From: a virus
Lineage: Duplodnaviria; Caudoviricetes
Reading direction: 5' to 3' (one strand)
Length of the DNA: 27,258 nt
IMG/VR virus record: IMGVR_UViG_3300040985_001450
Location: 1 to 27,258 of that record
Position numbers and translations under genes: made by a program. The notes under the pieces are model-generated. The model had not been told where the DNA came from. It saw only the letters and a program-made list of their open reading frames with translations, and did no database searches. Each line of letters begins with the position of its first letter. The stretch's first letter is position 1. Positions 3,631 through 18,245 of the stretch are shown here, piece by piece.

Positions 3631-5745
3631 ATGCTGAGTAACACAGACGTAGTTTCAGACATATACACCGGAGACGATGCGAACACCGACTTCGACTATC
3701 CGTTCAAGACGACAGCGGATTCCGAGATCAGGGTCTTCGTCAAAGACACTTCGGTCACGCCGAACACGGTGACAGAGAAGACGAACTTCACCGTCCAGGC
3801 CAACTCTCACGACAACAACTCGGGCGGGAGCATCACGTACCCGAACGACGCATCGGACGAGCTGACGACGACCGAGCGCATGGTCATCGTCCTGAACCTC
3901 CCGCTGACCCAGGCGACGACGTTCACGAGCCGAGACAAGCACACATCGATCGAGGCTGCGCTCGACGTTTTAACGAAGAAGGTCCAGGTACTCGACGAGC
4001 AGGTCGCTCGATCTATCAAGCTGAACATACTGGACCAGGCTCTCATCACGACGGACGAGCTGGCTGCGGAGATGGACAGCCCTCCGACCGACGAATACTT
4101 CATTCAATGGAACGCGACCAGCGGACGCGTGGAGTGGACTCTGACTGCGAACACCGAAGTCCCTCTCTCTGAACTCACGCAGAGCGGCGCATCGACTGGC
4201 AACGTCGTTCGATGGGACGGGGCTTCATGGGTGCCTGACGGAGACCTCACCACCGCCGAGGCTGACATCATAACCAACGCAGCGGCGATAGCACTCAACA
4301 CGACACACCGCTCATCCGACGGCAGCGATCACAGCGACGTAGTATTAAACACTACGCATCGAAGTTCCGACGGCAGCGATCACAGCGACGTAGTATTAAA
4401 CACGACGCACCGAAGTTCTGCCGGCAGCGATCACAGCGACGTAGTATTAAACACGACGCACCGAAGTTCTGCCGGCAGCGATCACAGCGACGTAGTATTA
4501 AACACGACACACCGCTCATCCGACGGCAGCGATCACAGCGATGTAGTATTAAACACGACACACCGCTCATCCGACGGCAGCGATCACAGCGATGTAGTAT
4601 TAAACACGACACACCGAAGTTCTGCCGGGACAGACCACAGCGATGTAGTATTAAACACTACGCATCGAAGTTCCGACGGCAGCGATCACAGCGACGTAGT
4701 ATTAAACACGACACACCGATCATCGGATGGGACAGACCACAGCGACGTAGTATTAAACACGACACACCGAAGTTCCGACGGCAGCGACCACGGCTTCCTG
4801 GACCAGGCCGTTACGATCGCGGCGAGTCCGACGTTTGCCGCCATCACGTCGGCGAGCGGAACCATTACATCCGACGGAGCAACGACCGAGACGAACCACC
4901 TGTTCTCTCACACGACTCCGGCGATTGACTGGGTGATCGGCTACGACCCTACAGACACGAGATATAAAATATCGAAAGGAACTTCTCATTCAGGAGGAAC
5001 TACGGCGGTGGAGTTCCGCGACGTAGACGGGAGCGCAAAATTCTACGGCTACATCGATATGGCTGATTTTGCGGTTCGCGGAATGGGCGGCGACAGATTT
5101 AACCCTGCCTTCGTGCCCAGCGGCACCGACGGGGATACAGGAATTTTTTCGAACTCGGCTGGGTACGTGAAGTTCTCCTCGAACAGCACTGAGGCTTTCA
5201 AGATCAGCTCGAGCGGAACGACCTGCATTTTCGACTTCGACTGCCAAGCCCAGATTCAGGGACAGGCGGGGAGTGCAGTTGGCGACCTGGCCTTCAACAC
5301 CTCGGACGACACCGATACCGGCTGGTACGCGATCGGCGCGAACAACTTGGGAATCGCCGCCGGCGGAGTGCTACAGGTAGACATCAACACCGCCAGGGCA
5401 GCCTTCAAGCAGCAGATTAGAGTCGTGAAGCAGACCAGGTACGACGTGCTGACGACGCTCTCGACGACCGGCGCAGTGTCCTGGGACATCCAGGCGGAGC
5501 CAGTCGCGAAGCTCGACATCACCGACAACGTGACACTCACCATCAACAACATAGAACAGGGTTCGAACGCGTGTATGCACTTCATCCAGCACTCGACCGC
5601 CAGGACAGTCACCTGGCCGGCGGCAGTTAAATGGGCTGGAGGCTCAGCGCCGGACCTCTCGACAGTCAACGCAGAATATCTCATCAGCTTCTTCTCGCCG
5701 AACGGGACGGACTTGATCGGGTCTACAATATTGGATTATTCATAA
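3631..5745 (+). CDS. Tail fiber protein
   Basis: Podovirus fiber-attachment N-terminus (YTGDDANTDFDYPF...EIRVFV...IEAALDVLTKKVQ), a central 17-aa repeat, and a C-terminal fiber domain (FIQ...RTVTWPAAVKWAGGSAP). The ATG directly follows the upstream stop. Confidence 0.85.
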   Translation: MLSNTDVVSDIYTGDDANTDFDYPFKTTADSEIRVFVKDTSVTPNTVTEKTNFTVQANSHDNNSGGSITYPNDASDELTTTERMVIVLNLPLTQATTFTSRDKHTSIEAALDVLTKKVQVLDEQVARSIKLNILDQALITTDELAAEMDSPPTDEYFIQWNATSGRVEWTLTANTEVPLSELTQSGASTGNVVRWDGASWVPDGDLTTAEADIITNAAAIALNTTHRSSDGSDHSDVVLNTTHRSSDGSDHSDVVLNTTHRSSAGSDHSDVVLNTTHRSSAGSDHSDVVLNTTHRSSDGSDHSDVVLNTTHRSSDGSDHSDVVLNTTHRSSAGTDHSDVVLNTTHRSSDGSDHSDVVLNTTHRSSDGTDHSDVVLNTTHRSSDGSDHGFLDQAVTIAASPTFAAITSASGTITSDGATTETNHLFSHTTPAIDWVIGYDPTDTRYKISKGTSHSGGTTAVEFRDVDGSAKFYGYIDMADFAVRGMGGDRFNPAFVPSGTDGDTGIFSNSAGYVKFSSNSTEAFKISSSGTTCIFDFDCQAQIQGQAGSAVGDLAFNTSDDTDTGWYAIGANNLGIAAGGVLQVDINTARAAFKQQIRVVKQTRYDVLTTLSTTGAVSWDIQAEPVAKLDITDNVTLTINNIEQGSNACMHFIQHSTARTVTWPAAVKWAGGSAPDLSTVNAEYLISFFSPNGTDLIGSTILDYS
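4297..4791 (+). repeat. In-frame tandem repeat, 51 bp x 9 full units plus 36 bp, encoding NTTHRSS(D/A)G(S/T)DHSDVVL
   Basis: Units start every 51 bp from 4297 (4348, 4399 ... 4501 ... 4756). Differences between units are mostly synonymous. Confidence 0.97.
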
Positions 5746-9141: not shown

Positions 9142-9190
9142 TGCAATCCTACACAAAAAGGTTGCAATCCTGCACAAAAAGGATTAAACT
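9142..9190 (+). promoter_or_regulatory. Sigma70-type early promoter overlapped by two operator-like repeats
   Basis: TTGCAA (9162-9167), a 17-nt spacer, then TAAACT (9185-9190). The direct repeat TGCAATCCTRCACAAAAAGG occurs at 9142 and 9163. Confidence 0.7.
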
Positions 9191-9483: not shown

Positions 9484-10485
9484 ATGACCGAACAAACGGA
9501 CTCCCCAACAACCGAAGAAACAAAAACGAAGAAGACGAGCGTCAAGGAATTGCGATCGCAAATCGCAGACCTCGAGCAGCTCATCGAAGATCGAGATCAA
9601 GAAGCATCGACGCTCGGCGCACGACTCAAGAAGGCAGCAACGCAACTCACCTCTCTCGAGAACGACGTCGCGGAACGAGACGCGACCATCGACACTCTGG
9701 AGAAAACCGGCCCGAACATCTACGAGCGGATGCTCGCCATCATGGAAGAGGTGAAGTACCTCAAGAAAGACTTCAATAAAAACCTCGGACATCCAGCGAC
9801 AACGCATGACGATGTCAGTGAGGCGATCCGTAAGGCCGCCGTGAACCACAAGGTCTTCATCCATACGACGACGATCGAGAACAGCACCGAGCTGATTCCT
9901 CGCCCGTCAAAGTATGATTCAGACCGTCGGGTGAGCTACACGAACGTAGACATCCTCGTGACCTTCATCAACGTGGACGATCCCGATGATAACTGCTCGT
10001 GTCGATTCATCGGTGCCGGCGAAGGTGCAGACAACAAGACACCAGGCGCAGCGTACAGCTTCGCGGTGAAGACGGCTCTGCTCAAGACCTTCCTGATTCC
10101 GACCGGCGAGGAAGAAGAAGAAGCACACCTCGAGAAGTCTATGACTGACGAGGAGAAGTCTGCGTCCGAAGCGAAGAAGGCTGCTGTCCTCCAGGAGAAA
10201 CAAGCGAAGGAACTCAAGCAGCGTATCGCGAAGTCCGACACAATGCTCAAGGATCTCGTCAGCCAGCGAGGCTTCCACCTGGTAGACACCGTCACCTGGA
10301 TCGAGCAGATGCACGAGAAGAAGTGGGTGGACATGGACCTCAACGAGCGCCAGCGAGCGTTCAAGCACGTCCGCTCCGACTACAAGGGAACGGCTGACGC
10401 CAAGCCCGAAAATGAAGAAGAAGCGCAGTCCGAAATGGAAGGCCACTACGAAGGCGAGCAGCAAGGCTGGCAAGACCAGGGATAA
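9484..10485 (+). CDS. erf: ERF-family single-strand annealing recombinase with an N-terminal coiled coil
   Basis: NIYERMLAIMEEVKYLKKD...HDDV...FINVDDPDD...GEGADNKTPGAAYSFAVKTALLKTFLIPTGE, matching the ERF G-x-A-x-S/T-Y/F-A-x-K motif. Confidence 0.85.
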   Translation: MTEQTDSPTTEETKTKKTSVKELRSQIADLEQLIEDRDQEASTLGARLKKAATQLTSLENDVAERDATIDTLEKTGPNIYERMLAIMEEVKYLKKDFNKNLGHPATTHDDVSEAIRKAAVNHKVFIHTTTIENSTELIPRPSKYDSDRRVSYTNVDILVTFINVDDPDDNCSCRFIGAGEGADNKTPGAAYSFAVKTALLKTFLIPTGEEEEEAHLEKSMTDEEKSASEAKKAAVLQEKQAKELKQRIAKSDTMLKDLVSQRGFHLVDTVTWIEQMHEKKWVDMDLNERQRAFKHVRSDYKGTADAKPENEEEAQSEMEGHYEGEQQGWQDQG

Positions 10486-10515: not shown

Positions 10516-11466
10516 ATGAGTACACTGAAAGAGAGAGTAATCGACCAGGCTCGGCGCGTCCGAGTCATCGACGGCGGCGGGTACGCTGTCTTCAATCACG
10601 AAGGGGACGACTACGAGATCCATATCAAGCAATCCGAGGATTATGTCCTCGCCTTCAAGCAGTTTGACGACGATGGATTCCCTACGATCGATCTCAAGTA
10701 TCCATCGGTGAAGTGTAGGTTCCGCGAGGTGTTCCCGAAGAATACGAAGCCGACCGAGGCGACCCAGGTGGCACCCATGCCGGACGAGGTCACGCTCCAG
10801 GTGCCGACCGAGGCGATGCTTTCGCACCTCAAGGGTGAAGTCGCAATCGTCGTCCAGGAAGCGAAGGACATCGTGGTGAGGAACGACGAAGACTTCAAGC
10901 GCATCGAGACCATCGCGGCGAACTCCGCCGGCTACATCAAAGAGGTTGCGAAGTTTATCGAGCCGTATAAGAAGGCAGCGAAGGCCGTACACTCGAATAT
11001 CTGCGCTCTGGAGTCTTCGCTTCTCGATGAGGCGAAGGAGGCGAAGTCTATCTCGACGCGCAAGGTCGGGCTACACCTCGAGGATATGGAGCGCCAGCGC
11101 CGCAAAGAACAAGCTGCTGCGGACGAGGCTGCTCGGCTTGAGAAAGAAAAGGAGGAACGCGAAGAAACGGAGATGCTTCGCAAAGTCGCCGGTGATGAGG
11201 TGGCTGACGCATACAAGGAAGAAGCCGCAGCTCAGCCAGTCATCTCCCATAAGGTGGACAGCTTTGCGCCTACCACCAGGAAGGGGACCGGCGGTCGCAA
11301 AAACTACAGCGCTCGCGTCGTAGACGAGAGTCTCATCCCTCTGAAATACCGACCCATCGACATGAAGCTGCTGAACTCAGAGGCGCGGCAGTTCAAAGAA
11401 AAGTTTGATGTCGAAGGCGCGAAGCTCGTAGTCGAAACCACCGGCGTAGTCCGAGGAGGTAAGTAA
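10516..11466 (+). CDS. Phage coiled-coil protein of the recombination module
   Basis: GAAAGGA SD; long charged helix; C-terminus RKNYSARVVDESLIP..IDMKLLN. Confidence 0.7.
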   Translation: MSTLKERVIDQARRVRVIDGGGYAVFNHEGDDYEIHIKQSEDYVLAFKQFDDDGFPTIDLKYPSVKCRFREVFPKNTKPTEATQVAPMPDEVTLQVPTEAMLSHLKGEVAIVVQEAKDIVVRNDEDFKRIETIAANSAGYIKEVAKFIEPYKKAAKAVHSNICALESSLLDEAKEAKSISTRKVGLHLEDMERQRRKEQAAADEAARLEKEKEEREETEMLRKVAGDEVADAYKEEAAAQPVISHKVDSFAPTTRKGTGGRKNYSARVVDESLIPLKYRPIDMKLLNSEARQFKEKFDVEGAKLVVETTGVVRGGK

Positions 11467-11468
11467 CC

Positions 11469-11573
11469 ATGAAGATCACATTATTGAACCTGACAGCTAT
11501 CGTTTTATGCGACATCTGCTGCACCATCCTCGGCTGCGTTCTCGCGCTGTGGCTCGCGGGGGTGATCACATGA
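11469..11573 (+). CDS. Small Cys-containing hydrophobic protein (34 aa), not in the ORF track
   Basis: GGAGG SD; MKITLLNLTAIVLCDICCTILGCVLALWLAGVIT; the stop overlaps the next start (ATGA) and the ORF fills the intergenic gap. Confidence 0.6.
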   Translation: MKITLLNLTAIVLCDICCTILGCVLALWLAGVIT

Positions 11574-12421
11574 AGGCTAAAACCATCAAGGCCATCCTAC
11601 GAAAGAAGACGGACGACTGGCTCTCGACTATCGAGGACGACGCGGTCCGCGCACTGGCTCGGAAGAACACCATCATCACCGGCGGCTGCATCGCGTCTAT
11701 GCTCCTACAGGAGAAGGTGAACGACTATGACCTGTACTTCCGCAACGCCGAGACCGCCTACCAGGTGGCGAACTACTATATCACGAAGTACAACGACGAG
11801 GTCGGTGGAGACATTAGTCTCATCGATGACCGCGAGGAAGACAGGATCGCAATCATGGTACAGTCCGTTGGCATCGAAGGGACGAAGGAAGACGAGGCAG
11901 GGTCTCCCGATGTCCAGGGCGATGACCTCGAAGTCCCGACGCAGGTTGAGACCGGCAGGTATCGTCCGGTCTTCTTCTCAATGAACGCGATCTCATTGAG
12001 TAACAAGATTCAGCTCGTGACTCGGTTCTACGGCGAGCCTGACCAGATTCACGAGAACTATGACTTCGTCCACTGCACGAACTCATGGGACTCGTGGACA
12101 GGCAAGCTCACGCTGCGACCAGACGCTCTGGAGTCGCTCCTGACGCGAGAACTCCGGTACGTCGGGTCGAAGTATCCCCTATGCTCCATTATACGCACAC
12201 GGAAGTTCGTGGCGCGTCAGTGGACCATCAACGCCGGACAGTACGTGAAGATGGCGTTCCAGCTCCAGGAGCACGACCTCAACGACCCAGCGGTCCTCGA
12301 GGAGCAGCTCACTGGAGTAGACATACACTACTTCTTCGAGGTCATCACGGCATTGAAGGAGCGAGACTCAAAACGAGTCGATACGGCTTACCTCATGGAA
12401 GTCATCGATCGTATATTCTAA
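11570..12421 (+). CDS. Putative nucleotidyltransferase (pol-beta superfamily, class II CCA/poly(A) polymerase head-like)
   Basis: IITGGCIASMLLQEKVNDYDLYF (GG...DxD) plus a downstream NYDFVHC motif. The start at 11570 follows a GGGGGTGAT SD. Confidence 0.7.
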   Translation: MKAKTIKAILRKKTDDWLSTIEDDAVRALARKNTIITGGCIASMLLQEKVNDYDLYFRNAETAYQVANYYITKYNDEVGGDISLIDDREEDRIAIMVQSVGIEGTKEDEAGSPDVQGDDLEVPTQVETGRYRPVFFSMNAISLSNKIQLVTRFYGEPDQIHENYDFVHCTNSWDSWTGKLTLRPDALESLLTRELRYVGSKYPLCSIIRTRKFVARQWTINAGQYVKMAFQLQEHDLNDPAVLEEQLTGVDIHYFFEVITALKERDSKRVDTAYLMEVIDRIF

Positions 12422-12451
12422 CCGCGCATCGCGCACACAAAGGAAAACGAC

Positions 12452-13150
12452 ATGAAGACGAGACAACAATTTGATCGACGCTTCGGCAAGACGAAGACCC
12501 AGCAGGTGAACTGCTGTAAAATGAAATCGGCAGAAATAATCGGGATGGCGGTCGCGGCACAGGAAGCCGCTGAGAAAATTCCCGAGAACTACCGAAGCCG
12601 AGAAGACAAGGTCCTCATCTCGACAGCGGTCGAGTGTGCTGAGAAGTACACCTCTCGAGCCATTCGATTGACCGAGTCGAAATACATGGCGCTCGCCAGC
12701 GAAGCCAATCTGGCTCTCAATATGAGGCGTATACTAAAGTCCGCCGCGAGTGACGAACAGAAGCAGGTTGAACTCAAGGCGCTCGCGGAATTCAGGCTCG
12801 ATAATCTCTGGGAATGTATCGAGCCAGATGAAGACGCCGATGTAGTAATGGATGAAATCTTTGGGACACTGTTCGATATTTTCGAGGTGGTCCGCGACAA
12901 AGTGAAGAAGGGGAAAACTGATGAAGCATCCGAACAAGTTCGTGGATACGATGAACCAGAGCGAGCTGCACAATCGACGAGTGGAACTAAATATGATACA
13001 GATGTCTCTGGTGAGCACACTGGGAACGATGAATCGTATAATAGAGGGGGCACTGGACGTGAGCCAGCAACCTCCGCATCAGCAGGAAATAATTCAGCAA
13101 GCCAGGAAGGAGGCGCTGAATCTAGCGATGACAGTCGCGGACGAGGCTGA
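12452..13150 (+). CDS. Hypothetical protein (its low-complexity tail overlaps the next gene)
   Basis: AAAGGA SD; the first ~156 codons look like ordinary coding sequence. Confidence 0.65.
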   Translation: MKTRQQFDRRFGKTKTQQVNCCKMKSAEIIGMAVAAQEAAEKIPENYRSREDKVLISTAVECAEKYTSRAIRLTESKYMALASEANLALNMRRILKSAASDEQKQVELKALAEFRLDNLWECIEPDEDADVVMDEIFGTLFDIFEVVRDKVKKGKTDEASEQVRGYDEPERAAQSTSGTKYDTDVSGEHTGNDESYNRGGTGREPATSASAGNNSASQEGGAESSDDSRGRG

Positions 13151-13388
13151 TGCAGCGCTGAATGTGATAGGAAACCAGGCCCAGCTATCTTACTTACAGA
13201 ACTGCGAGATCAAGATGATCTGCAAGGACGGAATCCTCAGTAACGCCGAGAAGATCGAGAAGGTGATGGCGATGACAGACAGGAACGCCGAACAGTTGTA
13301 CTCCTTCCTGAGTCACACCGAGTTCGACCCGAACCGGATGGACTCACTGGATTCCATAGGACTGCTCGACGAAGAACAAGACATCTAA
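12921..13388 (+). CDS. Hypothetical helical protein
   Basis: AAGGGG SD; 155 aa; ends just before the ssb RBS. Confidence 0.7.
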   Translation: MKHPNKFVDTMNQSELHNRRVELNMIQMSLVSTLGTMNRIIEGALDVSQQPPHQQEIIQQARKEALNLAMTVADEADAALNVIGNQAQLSYLQNCEIKMICKDGILSNAEKIEKVMAMTDRNAEQLYSFLSHTEFDPNRMDSLDSIGLLDEEQDI

Positions 13389-13415
13389 ATGGCCATTGGC
13401 CGAAAGGAAAACACC

Positions 13416-13895
13416 ATGAGTGATAAGAAACTCAAAATGCCAAGTATCAACAAGGTCGAGTTCTCTGGGAACATGACCAGGGACGGGGAGCTGAAATATC
13501 TGCCGAGCGGTATGGCAGTGTTCGAGTTCTCGGTCGCCGTAACCGAACGACGCAAGAACAAAAAGACGGGCGAGATGATCGAGGAGACTTCGTTCATCGA
13601 CTGCGCTGCCTGGGACAAGGCTGCGGAGTGGCTCGCGAAGGACACCAAAAAAGGATCTCCTGTAATCGTAGACGGGAAGTTCAAAACGGACACCTGGGAA
13701 GACAAGTCGACAGGACAGAAGCGCAGCAAGCTCAAGGTCACGGCGTTTCGAGTTCAGACTCTCGCCTGGGAGGACGATGGGGGTCGTCCTGGAGCGCACT
13801 CGTCCGGTGGTGGACAGCAAGGCGGCGGCTACTCAGAAGCCCCGAAGCCGCGTGTCATAGAGGAGCCAATAACCTTTGATGACATACCGTTCTGA
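13416..13895 (+). CDS. ssb: Single-stranded DNA-binding protein
   Basis: INKVEFSGNMTRDGELKYLPSG...FIDCAAW...GSPVIVDG...WEDK..GQKRSKLKV, a Gly-rich linker and C-terminal DDIPF. Confidence 0.96.
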   Translation: MSDKKLKMPSINKVEFSGNMTRDGELKYLPSGMAVFEFSVAVTERRKNKKTGEMIEETSFIDCAAWDKAAEWLAKDTKKGSPVIVDGKFKTDTWEDKSTGQKRSKLKVTAFRVQTLAWEDDGGRPGAHSSGGGQQGGGYSEAPKPRVIEEPITFDDIPF

Positions 13896-13905
13896 GGAGA
13901 TGATC

Positions 13906-14223
13906 ATGTCAATTAAATCACATATCGAACGGACGCTCGAGGAGCTGCGCGAGAACAGAGCTATGGAGCTCGAGGAGATGATTCAGCTCTCCTGCTCTCT
14001 GGTGGCATCTGGCGCGTTCAATCGCTCCACCACGAACCACTTGCAGCACGAGACCCTCATGCTGATGGCCGATGACGACAAGCTATCATTCGAGGATGCT
14101 CGGGGACGTATGTCGAAGGAAGCCGTGCAGGAGTGTGTGAGACAGGCAGCTCGGGACGTAGCGACCAGTGCTCGATTTTTACGCACTGCGATCATGGATG
14201 AGTTGGACACAGAAGGAGCGTAA
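13906..14223 (+). CDS. Hypothetical protein
   Basis: GAGGAG SD before the ATG at 13906. Confidence 0.65.
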   Translation: MSIKSHIERTLEELRENRAMELEEMIQLSCSLVASGAFNRSTTNHLQHETLMLMADDDKLSFEDARGRMSKEAVQECVRQAARDVATSARFLRTAIMDELDTEGA

Positions 14224-14233
14224 TAAACGAGGA

Positions 14234-14264
14234 GGGGCTGGCGGGTACGTAGACCGCCAGCCCC
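14234..14264. other. Strong GC hairpin without a + strand U-tract
   Basis: GGGGCTGGCGG-9nt-CCGCCAGCCCC, directly followed by AGAAAGGAG. Confidence 0.7.
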
Positions 14265-14309
14265 AGAAAGGAGTGCCAATGAGTAAGCACTACAACCGAA
14301 GGATACAGT

Positions 14310-15149
14310 ATGGGACATAATAAGTTAAAGCGCTATGAGCGCACGAAGCTGCACTCGATGTACTTCAATGCGGAGAACTGGGTGTCCTCGATGACCGTGA
14401 GGCTCCTGGGTCTCGAGGCAACCGGCGCGTACATCAATCTCCTGGCTGCTGCCTGGTTGACGGATGACTGCCACCTTCCGAAGGACGAGGATACGCTCAG
14501 GCTACTCTCAGGGTCTACATCAGAGGCTCAGTGGGCCCGAGTATGGCAAAAGCTGAGAACGTCGTTCCTGGAGGATTCTCGGGGATTCTACAACGAAGTG
14601 CAGCTCGCCGCCTGGAATAAGGCGATGGGCATCTATCAGCAGCGCGTCGAGGCATCGAAGCTCGGCGTGGCTGCCAGGGAAAACAACCGCACGGTTGACC
14701 ACACGGTACTACCGCACGGTACTACCGGAGGTACTACCAAACAGAAAACAGAAAACAGAAAGGGGTTAAAAGAGAAAAGAGAAAAACTACAGGGGGCTGT
14801 AGGGATCTCCGCCATCGTCAAGAACGCAACCAGTGACCTCACGAAAGGGACACATCCAGGCCGATTCAGGGGTCTGGTCGCTCCTGTGGTCGGGGAGCAG
14901 GACTGGGCGAGGTCTTACGGGTTCTTCTGTTGGGCCTCGGAGGAGTATCCCTATTTCCACGAAGACCTGGACCGGATGGTCGATTCACGCGATCCGGCCA
15001 TACGCCAAGCAAAAGGAATCGGTGACGCTCCCCTGGGGACGGCCTGGTTCCGCTGGAGGGTGAAGGAATGGGCATCAGAGACCCAGACCATCATCCCGAA
15101 GGATATGCAACTCAACGCTCAATACAGAGCACGAAAGGAAAACCAATGA
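14310..15149 (+). CDS. Replication initiator, DUF1376/YdaU-like N-terminus
   Basis: MYFNAENWVSS..VRLLGLEATGAYINLLAAAW....LPKDEDTLRLL; contains internal iteron-like repeats. Confidence 0.75.
   Translation: MGHNKLKRYERTKLHSMYFNAENWVSSMTVRLLGLEATGAYINLLAAAWLTDDCHLPKDEDTLRLLSGSTSEAQWARVWQKLRTSFLEDSRGFYNEVQLAAWNKAMGIYQQRVEASKLGVAARENNRTVDHTVLPHGTTGGTTKQKTENRKGLKEKREKLQGAVGISAIVKNATSDLTKGTHPGRFRGLVAPVVGEQDWARSYGFFCWASEEYPYFHEDLDRMVDSRDPAIRQAKGIGDAPLGTAWFRWRVKEWASETQTIIPKDMQLNAQYRARKENQ
14686..14786. other. Putative replication origin: four 12-13 bp iterons plus a strand-asymmetric A-rich tract
   Basis: ACCGCACGGTTG, ACCACACGGTACT, ACCGCACGGTACT, ACCGGAGGTACT, then AAACAGAAAACAGAAAACAGAAAGGGGTTAAAAGAGAAAAGAGAAAAA. 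Like the lambda origin, it sits inside the initiator gene. Confidence 0.7.
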
Positions 15150-15625
15150 GTAAGCGCAATAGAATGAAGGACAAGAAGCAGCAGATGAGCCTCAATGAAA
15201 TCATGGAGTTCATGGGGGAGGAGGGTCTCATCGACAAGGTGCGAGACTTCGACGACAATCTCATCACCCGAAAGGAAATCGAGCACAACTGGGGCTACGA
15301 GAGCGAGTACATCGGTACACTCCCGGACGCCTACGTGAACCAGCTCGTCAGACAGGGCAAGATGCCGAAGTACGTTCCAGTCAATGAACACGGTCGCGTA
15401 TGGTTCCGGTCGATGGTCCCGAAAGAGCGACCACTCCTATACATAGAGCAAAGGGCGATCGACAAGATGGCGTTCCAGGCGAAGAAACTGGAGCGCAAGA
15501 AGAAGGCTCCGGCAGAACCAAAGCCAGAGCAGAACGGTCAACTCACGATCGACGTCGCGGAGTTCAATGCGATGAAGGAACGCCTGGCGCAGCTCGAAGA
15601 AAATGTCGCATCGGCATCAGTATGA
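15146..15625 (+). CDS. Putative DNA-binding protein (AlpA/Xis-like central region)
   Basis: GAAAGGA SD; ATGA coupling; ITRKEI...YVNQLVRQGKMPKYVPV..GRVWF. Confidence 0.55.
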   Translation: MSKRNRMKDKKQQMSLNEIMEFMGEEGLIDKVRDFDDNLITRKEIEHNWGYESEYIGTLPDAYVNQLVRQGKMPKYVPVNEHGRVWFRSMVPKERPLLYIEQRAIDKMAFQAKKLERKKKAPAEPKPEQNGQLTIDVAEFNAMKERLAQLEENVASASV

Positions 15626-16155
15626 TCGTCGTCGAAATCACAGAGGAGCTACGAGAGAGGGCGAGGTGCCGGCTGGCGGCGGTGAACATCGAGAACCATC
15701 ACTTCCAGCCGGCTGATGTCCCCAGGAGTGCGATGGTCGGGATGCTCGGCGAGTATGTCGTGCTCAAGTATCTCTACGGAGACGAATCATTCGATGAGCA
15801 CCAGGACACCAAAGACTACGACATCGACTTCTTTGGGACACTGATCGACGTGAAGACCAAGAGAGGCAGCGGTAGGCCGAAGCCGTACTACAACGCGGCA
15901 GTTGTCGCAACTCAACACGAGCAGGGGTGCGACGTCTACTGCTTTGTTCGTATTCTCGAGGACATGACCGAAGGATACCCGATGGGGTGGATCAAGAAGT
16001 CAGAGTTCTACGAAATCGCGAGGATGTTCCATAAGGGAGATCAAGGCGAGAACGGGTACGTCTACCCAGCGGACTGTTACGAGGTCCGATACGATGAACT
16101 CAACCCGATGGAGCGCATGAAGGTGTACTTCAACGCGAAAGGAGAGGAACAGTGA
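15622..16155 (+). CDS. PD-(D/E)xK nuclease-family protein
   Basis: GMLGEYVV...DYDI....IDVKT motif; ATGA coupling. Confidence 0.65.
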   Translation: MIVVEITEELRERARCRLAAVNIENHHFQPADVPRSAMVGMLGEYVVLKYLYGDESFDEHQDTKDYDIDFFGTLIDVKTKRGSGRPKPYYNAAVVATQHEQGCDVYCFVRILEDMTEGYPMGWIKKSEFYEIARMFHKGDQGENGYVYPADCYEVRYDELNPMERMKVYFNAKGEEQ

Positions 16156-16637
16156 ACGAGACAATTCCGAGAATCGAAAACGACACGACGAACATCAGCG
16201 ACAAACTTTTCACTGACGTATTCATAGAGCATAACGCGGTACTCAAGAGCCTGGGCTTCCCTGCGATGCGCCAGGACGTGACTGTCATCGCAGACAACAT
16301 CCTGCCGGCAGACAAGAAGACGTCGAACTGGACCGGATACGCGGACTGGAAGAATCTGGTCATCAACCTGCACTTCAACGATAGGCTTCGAGCGGTCGTG
16401 CAGCGCAAGGACATGATGGGTGGGAATCACTGGTTCGCGCTGCACTCAACGAAGGCCATCGTGACAGACGCGTACTCGCATGAGACCGGACACATCGTAA
16501 CCGAGCATCCCTCCCAGGAGTTCCCCAGGACTCTCGAGAGGCACTCGGTCAACCGGCTCCAGGTGCGTGAGGGGCACAACACGAATATTCTCCTGGCGCG
16601 AATCGCGGTCTCTCAGATGGTCAGGGGAATATTCTAA
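16152..16637 (+). CDS. Hypothetical protein
   Basis: GGAGAGG SD; GTGA overlap with the upstream stop. Confidence 0.7.
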   Translation: MNETIPRIENDTTNISDKLFTDVFIEHNAVLKSLGFPAMRQDVTVIADNILPADKKTSNWTGYADWKNLVINLHFNDRLRAVVQRKDMMGGNHWFALHSTKAIVTDAYSHETGHIVTEHPSQEFPRTLERHSVNRLQVREGHNTNILLARIAVSQMVRGIF

Positions 16638-16703
16638 TGCAGTACGATTCTCAATACAGGGACGTGCTCAACAACCGCCGAGAGGCAGAAGAAGGAGGCT
16701 ACT

Positions 16704-17165
16704 ATGCCAAAGAAACGAGTGAACAGTAGAGCGAAGGGAATCCGTGGAGAACTCGAAGCGTGTAAGCTGCTGGCGAGCTGCGACTTCCCAGCGATTCGTT
16801 CACAGCAACACAAGGGCGCGTCCGACGCGAGTGATGTCCTGGTCCCCAGGTTCGAGCAGCTCAGCCTGTTCCCCGAGGTCAAGCGCGTCGAGCAGCTCCG
16901 CCTGAACGACTGGATGAATAAATGCCTCGAGGACATCAAGACTCACTCGATGGCCGAGGCTGAACGTGAAGGGAAGGAGATGTATGCAACGAAGCCGCAG
17001 ATGCCTGTAATCCTTCACCGACGCACGAAGGAGCCCTGGTTCATCACGATGGACGCCGTGGACTTCTTGCAGCTCATCGACCGCCTGGACGGAGAAGTCG
17101 CGCACCTCAACAAGGTGATCGCTAACGTCGAGATAAATAGCATCGTCGGCGATGGAAGGAGATAG
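16704..17165 (+). CDS. Holliday junction resolvase, Hjc-like PD-(D/E)xK type
   Basis: NSRAKGIRGELE...RSQQ..G...SDV...EVKRVEQL...PVILHRR...W; AAGGAGG SD. Confidence 0.8.
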   Translation: MPKKRVNSRAKGIRGELEACKLLASCDFPAIRSQQHKGASDASDVLVPRFEQLSLFPEVKRVEQLRLNDWMNKCLEDIKTHSMAEAEREGKEMYATKPQMPVILHRRTKEPWFITMDAVDFLQLIDRLDGEVAHLNKVIANVEINSIVGDGRR

Positions 17166-17167
17166 TA

Positions 17168-17536
17168 ATGAGAATGGCATACAACGAAATTTACCGAGAC
17201 ATGATCGTCAGGATGCAGGGGAAGGAAGCCGTCGCAGAGAAATGCCTTCGGGCTGCGGACCGGCGCGTGGAGGAACTACAGGCCATGATCACAATCATGC
17301 GGAAAGAGATGGTAAGACTGGAGGCGATGCTCGAGCAGAAGTCTCAGGCGAAGGATGAACAGCGAACCAAGCTACAGGAGCGCATCGCTGACGCCGGCAG
17401 AGGCAACGAGCGACTCAAGGGGAAGCTGAACGTATCGAGGCTGCAACATCAGCGAGCCCTACTCCAGAACAAGGACCTCATGGTTGCACTGAGCAAGGCA
17501 GAGGCTCAGAATGAGGGGTTGAAGAATATTGAGTGA
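17168..17536 (+). CDS. Coiled-coil hypothetical protein
   Basis: AAGGAG SD; heptad-rich sequence. Confidence 0.7.
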   Translation: MRMAYNEIYRDMIVRMQGKEAVAEKCLRAADRRVEELQAMITIMRKEMVRLEAMLEQKSQAKDEQRTKLQERIADAGRGNERLKGKLNVSRLQHQRALLQNKDLMVALSKAEAQNEGLKNIE

Positions 17537-17554
17537 TTGTGTATTATCAATATC

Positions 17555-17971
17555 ATGGATGAACAACAGCAAATAGCGCAAGACATCATGAAGGCAGTCC
17601 GATGCTTACTTGACCGGAATGACCAATGGGGAGCCTCGGCTATCGAGGTGAACGCCTTGCTGATGCCAGGTGTCACCATCGAGCGCACACTGTTGACGAA
17701 GCAGGAACGCGAGGACCTGATTGAGTACCTCCAGATTCTCGGCAGCACGACGGAGGCGTTCGATTATCCAGAAAATATCGTTGTCACCATCAACACGCTG
17801 GCAGCAGACGGACGAGGAAATCCAGGCGGCAGACGTCGGCCTGGGTTCCTCTCCGACTATGAGCAAATGATTTTCGATGAGGTCGCCAAGACCTTCCTCG
17901 CCGAATCATTCGCTCAAGAGAAGCACGAGCGCATCGATGAGGTCTACCAGATGCGCCACACGGTAATTTGA
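17555..17971 (+). CDS. Hypothetical protein
   Basis: ~138-aa ORF with genome-typical codon usage; start uncertain. Confidence 0.65.
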   Translation: MDEQQQIAQDIMKAVRCLLDRNDQWGASAIEVNALLMPGVTIERTLLTKQEREDLIEYLQILGSTTEAFDYPENIVVTINTLAADGRGNPGGRRRPGFLSDYEQMIFDEVAKTFLAESFAQEKHERIDEVYQMRHTVI

Positions 17972-17979
17972 ATCTGTTT

Positions 17980-18094
17980 TCAGGGGAGTAGCTCAATCCT
18001 GCGGGTAAATCGCAGACGCGGCAGCGTAGTAGAGCACAGTCGACGAGGATTCTCGGAGACTGCTGTTTCGGTGGCAGATCCGAACCCCCTGACC
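17980..18094 (+). ncRNA. tRNA-like RNA with an expanded D-loop and no anticodon loop
   Basis: Acceptor (T)CAGGGG[A]G / CCCCCTG(A), TA linker, D-stem GCTC/GAGC, anticodon stem CAGTC/GACTG, variable CTGT, T-stem TTCGG/CCGAA, 3' ACC. It lies in an intergenic gap. Confidence 0.75.
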
Positions 18095-18170
18095 TTTCTT
18101 CGACCCGCTCTTGGGACACAGTCGAACAGAGCTTCGATTCTCCTGGGAGGGGGTCTTCTTATATTCACTA

Positions 18171-18199
18171 TTGACATCCACCACAACGGGCTGTATTCT
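18171..18199 (+). promoter_or_regulatory. Sigma70-type promoter for the endolysin/packaging/head genes
   Basis: TTGACA-17nt-TATTCT with an AT-rich upstream segment. Confidence 0.75.
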
Positions 18200-18245
18200 A
18201 CCCTCGAACTGATGAGTATTCTCCAGGCAACGAGAACGGCTCAGG

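Follow-up and report, generated by a model that had tools for sequence, protein, structure and literature searches.

The phage counter-defense factor closest to the protein considered here is Gad2 (Gabija anti-defense 2) of the Bacillus phage SPbetaL7: according to the original study, knocking it out renders SPbetaL7 sensitive to Gabija, a homologue also blocks Gabija, and Gad2 is toxic when expressed (10.1101/2023.05.01.538930). How Gad2 blocks Gabija is described as an open question (PMC12904381). Gabija is itself reported to be licensed either by Mu Gam or by an exonuclease paired with an annealing protein (10.1101/2025.08.30.673261), and OLD, a nuclease related to Gabija, to cut tRNA, to be triggered from recombination loci near which an OLD inhibitor is encoded, and to be countered by rescue with phage tRNAs (10.64898/2026.07.10.737580). 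Here we describe a 27,258-base stretch of tailed-phage DNA (hereinafter the window), which is the whole of the IMG/VR record IMGVR_UViG_3300040985_001450, with a focus on a gene for a nucleotidyltransferase-like protein (hereinafter the enzyme) and on a tRNA-shaped RNA encoded downstream of it. An earlier note, made from the sequence, had proposed that these two form one system, in which a CCA-enzyme-like transferase acts on the RNA or on host tRNAs in anti-defense or translation takeover. The explanation that we consider best, at about even confidence, is instead a Gad2-family enzyme that likely shields the recombination module from Gabija/OLD-type nucleases, plus a separate tRNA-shaped RNA that is predicted not to decode.

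The open reading frame (ORF) at 11570–12421 on the + strand encodes 283 residues and, as the earlier note had read it, contains the GGCIASMLL...DYDLYF and NYDFVHC motifs and lacks RRD. Its start is placed at 11570 because relatives begin at the same methionine (M1 is almost invariant in an alignment of 120 of them); an alternative start at 11507 was rejected. Relatives number 5,834 among 6,648 candidates (2,842 cluster representatives at 50% identity); the gene is rare in phages, being present in 30 of 50,697 phage records. G38, G39, D52, and D54 are invariant in 120/120 of the relatives listed, and N163 and D165 are likewise invariant among them. The enzyme matches phrog_4400 with E 1e-68, precomputed annotation places PF26128 on the enzyme itself and on all 120 listed relatives, and the atlas names the family Gad2 with a score of 0.99. 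Profile–profile comparison of the family with the founding Gad2 of SPbetaL7 using hhalign recovered a match (97.7%, E 1.6e-12, 187 columns, 24% identity) that covers Gad2 residues 14–202 and leaves ~180 additional C-terminal Gad2 residues with no counterpart; the founding Gad2 in turn matches phrog_4400 at E 7.9e-27. On these sequence comparisons, the enzyme is a member of the Gad2 family.

Structural comparisons agree with the earlier note's call of a class II CCA/poly(A) polymerase (PAP) fold, for which it had suggested a Foldseek search. Starting from a structure model (pLDDT 86.6), that search returned a nucleotidyltransferase fold whose top matches were all class II CCA/PAP enzymes (E 3e-05, TM 0.38–0.40), the nearest solved structures being class II CCA-adding enzymes and bacterial poly(A) polymerase. 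A comparison against 48,161 chains gave Z-scores of 10.3 (3aql), 10.2 (3h37), 9.8, and 9.7, as well as 9.6 to TENT5B, and the superposition on 3h37 has an rmsd of 5.0 over 185 aligned residues. The match stops near residue 230–240 of chains of 390–440 residues, and the enzyme has no body/tail domain for the tRNA elbow. As modeled, then, it is a class II CCA/PAP head/neck fold with an intact DxD. Its motif A aligns to that of E. coli Cca; in motif B the RRD position is occupied by NYD, and the position of the motif D template EDxxR is taken by KYPLC, in a low-identity alignment anchored on an invariant P and R. According to one study, RRD serves ribose recognition and EDxxR C/A templating, and the [LIV][LIV]G[RK][RK]F poly(A) polymerase signature that it gives is absent from the enzyme sequence (PMC2910056). 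Sequence matches to E. coli Cca and PcnB were not significant, with the similarity confined to motif A, and a PDB sequence search with the protein and its profile found no match. As judged from its motifs, the enzyme is not a member of the CCA-adding family; we infer that it is a template-independent transferase of the class II type. It may be that the invariant Q148 takes the place of the third carboxylate found in class II enzymes, a guess on which the alignment gave no clear answer. Another report treats the genuine CCA enzymes and the RlaP transferases of jumbo phages as separate entities (PMC7824862), and Gad2 labels are, according to two further sources, spreading to other phage transferases (PMC13728456, 10.64898/2026.09.15.751885).

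All recognized genes of the window lie on the + strand, and those around the enzyme come in the order ERF, phrog_10477, the enzyme, and then the single-strand DNA-binding protein (SSB). The features on which the following account draws are:

9484..10485, + strand: single-strand annealing protein of the ERF type, encoded two genes before the enzyme (Pfam ERF E 1.9e-08, phrog_155)
10516..11466, + strand: coiled-coil protein of phrog_10477 (E 2.3e-14; PHROG label "exonuclease"), the enzyme's most frequent direct neighbor
11469..11573, + strand: 34-codon hydrophobic ORF whose stop overlaps the enzyme start (ATGA); contains a possible RNA pairing site at 11530–11560
11570..12421, + strand: Gad2-family nucleotidyltransferase by homology, 283 residues (PF26128, phrog_4400), with D52-x-D54 and a modeled class II CCA/poly(A) polymerase-like fold
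13416..13895, + strand: SSB (Pfam E 1.2e-27), in the same recombination/replication operon
17981..18094, + strand: tRNA look-alike; cloverleaf with two D-loop hairpins, a 16-nt closed anticodon extension, a T loop of 8 nt, and a 3′ A-CC that stops short of the last A
18102..18155, + strand: long hairpin and then a T-rich run (–30.6 kcal/mol), with a terminator-like match at 18136–18155
18171..18199, + strand: sigma-70-like promoter match (10/12; a consensus match only) ahead of the endolysin and terminase genes

Such neighbors recur beyond the window. We gathered 162 loci, 158 with an enzyme ORF, de-replicated them to 107 groups at 80% identity, and used random anchors in the same loci (1000 draws) as controls; the neighboring ORF calls are mechanical, the same loci supplied the seed families, the groups are not independent of one another phylogenetically, and only the pooled count is used for the ERF and Sak4 labels, which merged in the local search. 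A strand-annealing gene occurs within one gene of the enzyme in 20/107 groups versus 2.6 expected (maximum 10), within two genes in 33/107 versus 5.2 expected (maximum 12; 43/107 versus 9.9 expected for the wider recombination set), and anywhere in the locus in 42/107. The recurring neighbors are phrog_10477, SSB, ERF, Sak4-like, RecT, and Rad52-like proteins, RecE/YqaJ-type exonucleases, Gp157, and NinB. As the annealing partners are of four kinds belonging to different families (ERF, RecT, Rad52/Sak, and Sak4), the link follows function and not one inherited cassette. The company that the enzyme keeps is recombination genes, not tRNA genes. Our literature search found nothing on a tie between this Gad2-related subfamily and recombination genes, which is apparently unreported. 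The phrog_10477 protein, found at ±1 gene from the enzyme in 16/18 of its occurrences, resembles, despite its PHROG label, a coiled coil with a Gp157-like tail (atlas TM 0.30/0.48 to Sipho_Gp157, a weak likeness below the naming bar); it may be an unrecognized Gam-type end-binding family.

The same linkage to annealing genes and phrog_10477, along with the loss of RRD and hence of the ribose-reading role ascribed to it in PMC2910056, would also suit a plain recombination/repair accessory that adds tails to DNA ends, or fills them in, on behalf of the annealing protein, possibly aided by the phrog_10477 protein, and plays no part in defense. We consider this unlikely, if worth keeping in view: the sole tested homologue is an anti-Gabija factor, and the gene is patchy in distribution and is also seen in DNA-modification and MoxR/vWA clusters. 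One such locus (L006:8087–12205) has the enzyme within a DNA-modification cluster with an hmdU kinase and a sulfotransferase/glycosyltransferase, unlike the recombination context. A further alternative is that the enzyme mends or tags the ends of host tRNAs, for instance after the action of an OLD-type tRNase set off by recombination proteins, with the RNA acting as a separate decoy. The closest solved folds are those of tRNA nucleotidyltransferases, and OLD is reported to cleave tRNA, to be triggered from recombination loci, and to be overcome by phage tRNAs (10.64898/2026.07.10.737580). However, the enzyme has neither the EDxxR template nor the tail domain, only 1 of the 67 enzyme neighbors scanned is an RNA ligase, and of 11 near-complete enzyme genomes, 7 are devoid of tRNA genes (the other 4 have ordinary tRNAs), so that we regard a role at host tRNA ends as rather improbable.

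Turning to the RNA, the earlier note had picked out a tRNA-like element with a 3′ ACC-T, and a full cloverleaf is indeed recovered at 17981–18094. Its acceptor has 7 bp with one bulged A, followed by U8-A9, a 4-bp D stem with A14 and A21, a D loop of 37 nt with two hairpins in it, an anticodon stem of 5 bp that closes 16 nt (a 2×2 GA/GA loop plus a 4-bp hairpin), a 4-nt variable loop, a 5-bp T stem with an 8-nt loop in which U54 and A58 are kept, and the 3′ A-C-C-T. The minimum free energy is –48.7 kcal/mol (z –3.4), with none of 200 shuffles as stable; the pair probability is at least 0.75 for 30/34 cloverleaf pairs, plus two T-stem pairs at at least 0.77, the weak ones being junction pairs (0.51 and 0.30). 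A relaxed cloverleaf descriptor, written around this very RNA, matched 0/300 shuffled windows and gave one chance match in the tail-fiber repeat. The RNA has the canonical marks U8, A14, A21, G53-C61, U54, and A58; the canonical 7-nt anticodon loop with U33 is missing, its 16-nt equivalent starting with GA and folding as a hairpin, and against the tRNA canon of a 7-nt TTC-bearing T loop and a D-loop GG, its T loop has 8 nt without TTC and its D loop has no GG before U20-A21. The RNA is predicted not to decode. In line with the earlier note's remark that the window has no canonical tRNA gene, ARAGORN found none in this ~62%-complete record, although the phage may have tRNA genes outside the window; Rfam searches gave no real match to the RNA. 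Intron readings were rejected on inspection, as there is no bulge-helix-bulge and removing the inserts restores neither the D-loop GG nor the T loop. Compared with YrlA and bacterial Y RNAs, in which the acceptor extends into a Ro60-binding stem and a Ro60 gene lies nearby, the acceptor stem here stops at 7–8 bp, with no Rfam match and no TROVE domain among the 35 ORFs of the 62%-complete record. The RNA lies after the last early/middle ORF and before the long hairpin with its T run, a likely terminator of the early/middle transcript by its sequence features, and the promoter-like site. Two short contigs of one public run, possibly the source sample, cover 17930–18080 and 18055–18205 without a difference; no public run is listed as carrying the RNA, which has no bearing on expression.

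Using a pattern for a tRNA body with a long D loop, we retrieved 121 viral stretches from 14 of the 64 parts of the collection (~570 estimated overall). Screening 185 loci left 47 cloverleaves with D loops of 18–48 nt, once duplicates, D-arm duplications, and chance folds were left out; similar tRNA look-alikes are common in uncultured phages. Together with the window RNA (n=48), 12 encode CCA and 36 have an incomplete CCA, 14 have a 7-nt loop starting with pyrimidine-U, and in 19 the insert folds better than 95% of shuffles. Since CCA is encoded in only 12/48 look-alikes, and in 55/114 of the distinct tRNAs that ARAGORN called in the viral loci retrieved, an incomplete CCA or missing terminal A is ordinary in such RNAs and common in phage tRNA genes. 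In one family of 11 look-alikes, 10/29 predicted pairs show two-sided changes, those of the D-loop hairpin included; this family, from large phages (L134, L140, L142, L151, L163, L171, L174, L175, L182, L189, and L211; ~282–380, – strand), has an acceptor with a bulge, a D-loop hairpin that covaries, and anticodon loops of 5–8 nt in which a TGAA core is kept. A 239-kb phage (L153:286–520, – strand) has two tandem look-alikes with two D-loop hairpins each, one of which, with a 19-nt anticodon loop and an inner hairpin, is the closest architecture to the window RNA. Two 55-kb phages (L062:1–705 and L104) have look-alikes of near-identical type, with D loops of 40–41 nt and an anticodon loop of 6 nt (CTCACG), standing in a run of further degenerate tRNA-like elements.

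Searches for the exact RNA were negative within their scope: its pattern had no match in viral contigs, blastn against 50,697 phage records gave chance matches of 20–27 nt only, and a single-sequence covariance model, insensitive to diverged relatives, found the window RNA alone in 91 sources and in 45 records. A pattern for the 8-nt T loop gave 63 viral matches, of which one (L062) is a decorated tRNA but with an ordinary T loop, and a metagenome pattern gave four matches, none with E < 0.15. This failure to find a homologue and the deviating T loop and acceptor would fit a functionless decayed tRNA gene or attachment-site remnant; yet all four stems are intact, the three extra hairpins are perfect, and the D-loop hairpin of the related class shows two-sided changes, and we judge decay improbable. 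The window RNA rather appears to be a further variant among the phage tRNA look-alikes, a class that escapes annotation tools. We found no papers on D-loop-hairpin look-alikes, in a search of a literature that leaves out most subscription journals. The T4 stable RNAs species 1 and 2 are similar in having a tRNA body, added elbow hairpins, and no usable anticodon loop.

The enzyme and RNAs of this kind are found independently of each other in both directions. An enzyme profile with a 5/5 positive control detected no enzyme in 47 records with decorated RNAs (50 sought minus 3; 10 of them at least 90% complete), and none of 11 enzyme genomes at least 90% complete and read whole, one of which (G027) has a partial enzyme gene, carries a decorated RNA. 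Likewise, no D-loop-expanded RNA was found at 134 further enzyme loci, 90 of them with at least 5.8 kb downstream; the covariance model of the window RNA had no match in 44 other records; and whole-record RNA patterns matched in 1/28 and 1/44, neither match being a cloverleaf, at the level of reversed-pattern controls. Two enzyme-bearing loci (L260 and L261) have tRNA genes with over-long anticodon or variable arms. Because each occurs without the other in other phages, the enzyme and the RNA are probably separate passengers and not one system. The earlier note, which had itself named independent occurrence as grounds for abandoning its two-part system, is thus not upheld on this point; its anti-defense role remains plausible with Gad2 in the family, although not through a dedicated enzyme–RNA pair. 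That the enzyme matures or tags the window RNA as its dedicated substrate is accordingly very unlikely: the two lie on the same strand, probably in the same transcript region, and a CCA-enzyme-like fold is paired with an RNA ending in CC, but besides their independence the enzyme is without CCA-specifying motifs and incomplete CCA is the rule among such RNAs (36/48). The spacing noted earlier as ~5.5 kb is 5,560 bases, with 11 ORFs between.

Phage P1 C4 RNA is an antisense regulator, and on its model the D-loop insert of the window RNA could pair with 11530–11560, up to the ribosome-binding site of the enzyme, and thereby check a possibly toxic gene. This segment is the best D-loop duplex partner, first of 5,405 windows, at –41.8 kcal/mol, a value reached there by 1/87 and 0/1000 shuffled D loops, and Gad2 is described as toxic when expressed (10.1101/2023.05.01.538930). 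The pairing is, however, post hoc, with 3/54 shuffles equaling it somewhere in the window; the segment is G-rich and promiscuous, being in the top ten for 21/87 shuffles; 9 of the 28 pairs are G-U, with no long Watson–Crick seed; and unfolding leaves a net gain of no more than –1.7 to –4.7 kcal/mol. We give such regulation hardly any credence. Antisense pairing to leaders in general was rejected, the longest match anywhere being 10 nt, at chance level.

We return to the explanation of a Gad2-family enzyme shielding the recombination module. In it, the enzyme would be made together with ERF, would transfer nucleotides without a template, and would thereby blunt the defense set off by the neighboring recombination proteins; the subfamily would be placed in recombination operons because it counters the defenses that those operons trigger, and the anti-defense role is plausible because the family contains Gad2. 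As to the acceptor, DNA ends or recombination intermediates are our tentative first guess, a defense protein is a weaker second, and tRNA ends, the third, are doubtful, as is any other acceptor. Transcription of the RNA would come last in the same early/middle region, and host enzymes would trim it and supply its CCA, with no phage enzyme needed; by analogy, it would likely be a stable decoy that draws off proteins which bind or cut tRNA. Several points weigh against this picture. The closest solved folds to the enzyme all act on RNA; with an identity of only 24% and the ~180 extra C-terminal residues of Gad2, the anti-Gabija activity may not carry over; 65/107 loci have no annealing gene within 8 kb in the local search; recombination operons attract early accessory genes in general; and the 107 groups were only de-replicated at 80% identity, with seed families from the same loci. 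Further, given the rarity of the enzyme (30/50,697) and with 37/47 records below 90% completeness, the zero counts rule out obligate pairing but leave room for a mild enrichment, and the decoy role rests on analogy as no homologue of the exact RNA was found. More broadly, though this seems to us a less probable proposition, Gad2-family enzymes could be a widespread "bodyguard" of recombination operons: derived from CCA polymerases, having lost RNA specificity, and nucleotidylating DNA ends or the defense complex, so that ERF/RecT/Sak modules go uncaught by Gabija/OLD. If true, this would provide a mechanism for Gad2 and thousands of candidate relatives; the link of the subfamily to genes that license Gabija and trigger OLD in any case bears on the open mechanism of Gad2.

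The record as a whole, estimated as ~62% complete, has by Pfam/PHROG a holin, ERF, SSB, a RusA-like resolvase, an M15 endolysin, terminases, a head-tail connector, a GP7 capsid protein, and Bbp16. This gene set marks the phage, by its predicted proteins, as a podovirus-like tailed phage; terminase-gene searches found no close relatives. A AAAGGAAA-N-ACC-ATG leader is common to the early genes at 9484, 10516, 12452, 13416, and 15146; the leader at the enzyme start differs, with a G-run and the overlapping 34-codon ORF. Two 21-base direct repeats at 9142–9182 precede a small DUF1580-like gene where the early region begins and are possible operator or promoter elements, and ~10 copies of a 51-base (17-residue) repeat lie at 4297–4791 within a tail-fiber-like gene (3631–5745).

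Set beside the described systems, the enzyme is closest to Gad2, which is likewise phage-borne and has a homologous catalytic region sharing the GG, DxD, DF, and P..R..K positions. It differs in length (283 versus 400 residues), having no C-terminal extension and an extra acidic insert; in its PHROG subfamily (phrog_4400 versus phrog_18122); and in its link to recombination genes, and its anti-Gabija activity is a prediction from homology. With Oad2, the OLD inhibitor (10.64898/2026.07.10.737580), it has in common the position of an anti-defense gene beside recombination genes that trigger a defense; the likeness is one of gene position, and the source does not, in the part considered, present Oad2 as an enzyme. 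With class II CCA enzymes and poly(A) polymerase I it shares the head and neck fold (Z ~10), the GG...DxD of motif A, the aspartate of motif B, and the proline and arginine on either side of motif D, and it has none of their RRD, EDxxR, G-[RK]-[RK]-F signature, or tail domain. The RNA, finally, is most like the 47 phage tRNA look-alikes with D-loop hairpins, which have an intact tRNA body, elbow hairpins, no usable anticodon loop, and often an unencoded CCA; it is set apart from them by its 8-nt non-TTC T loop, bulged acceptor, two D-loop hairpins, and GA/GA-extended anticodon arm.

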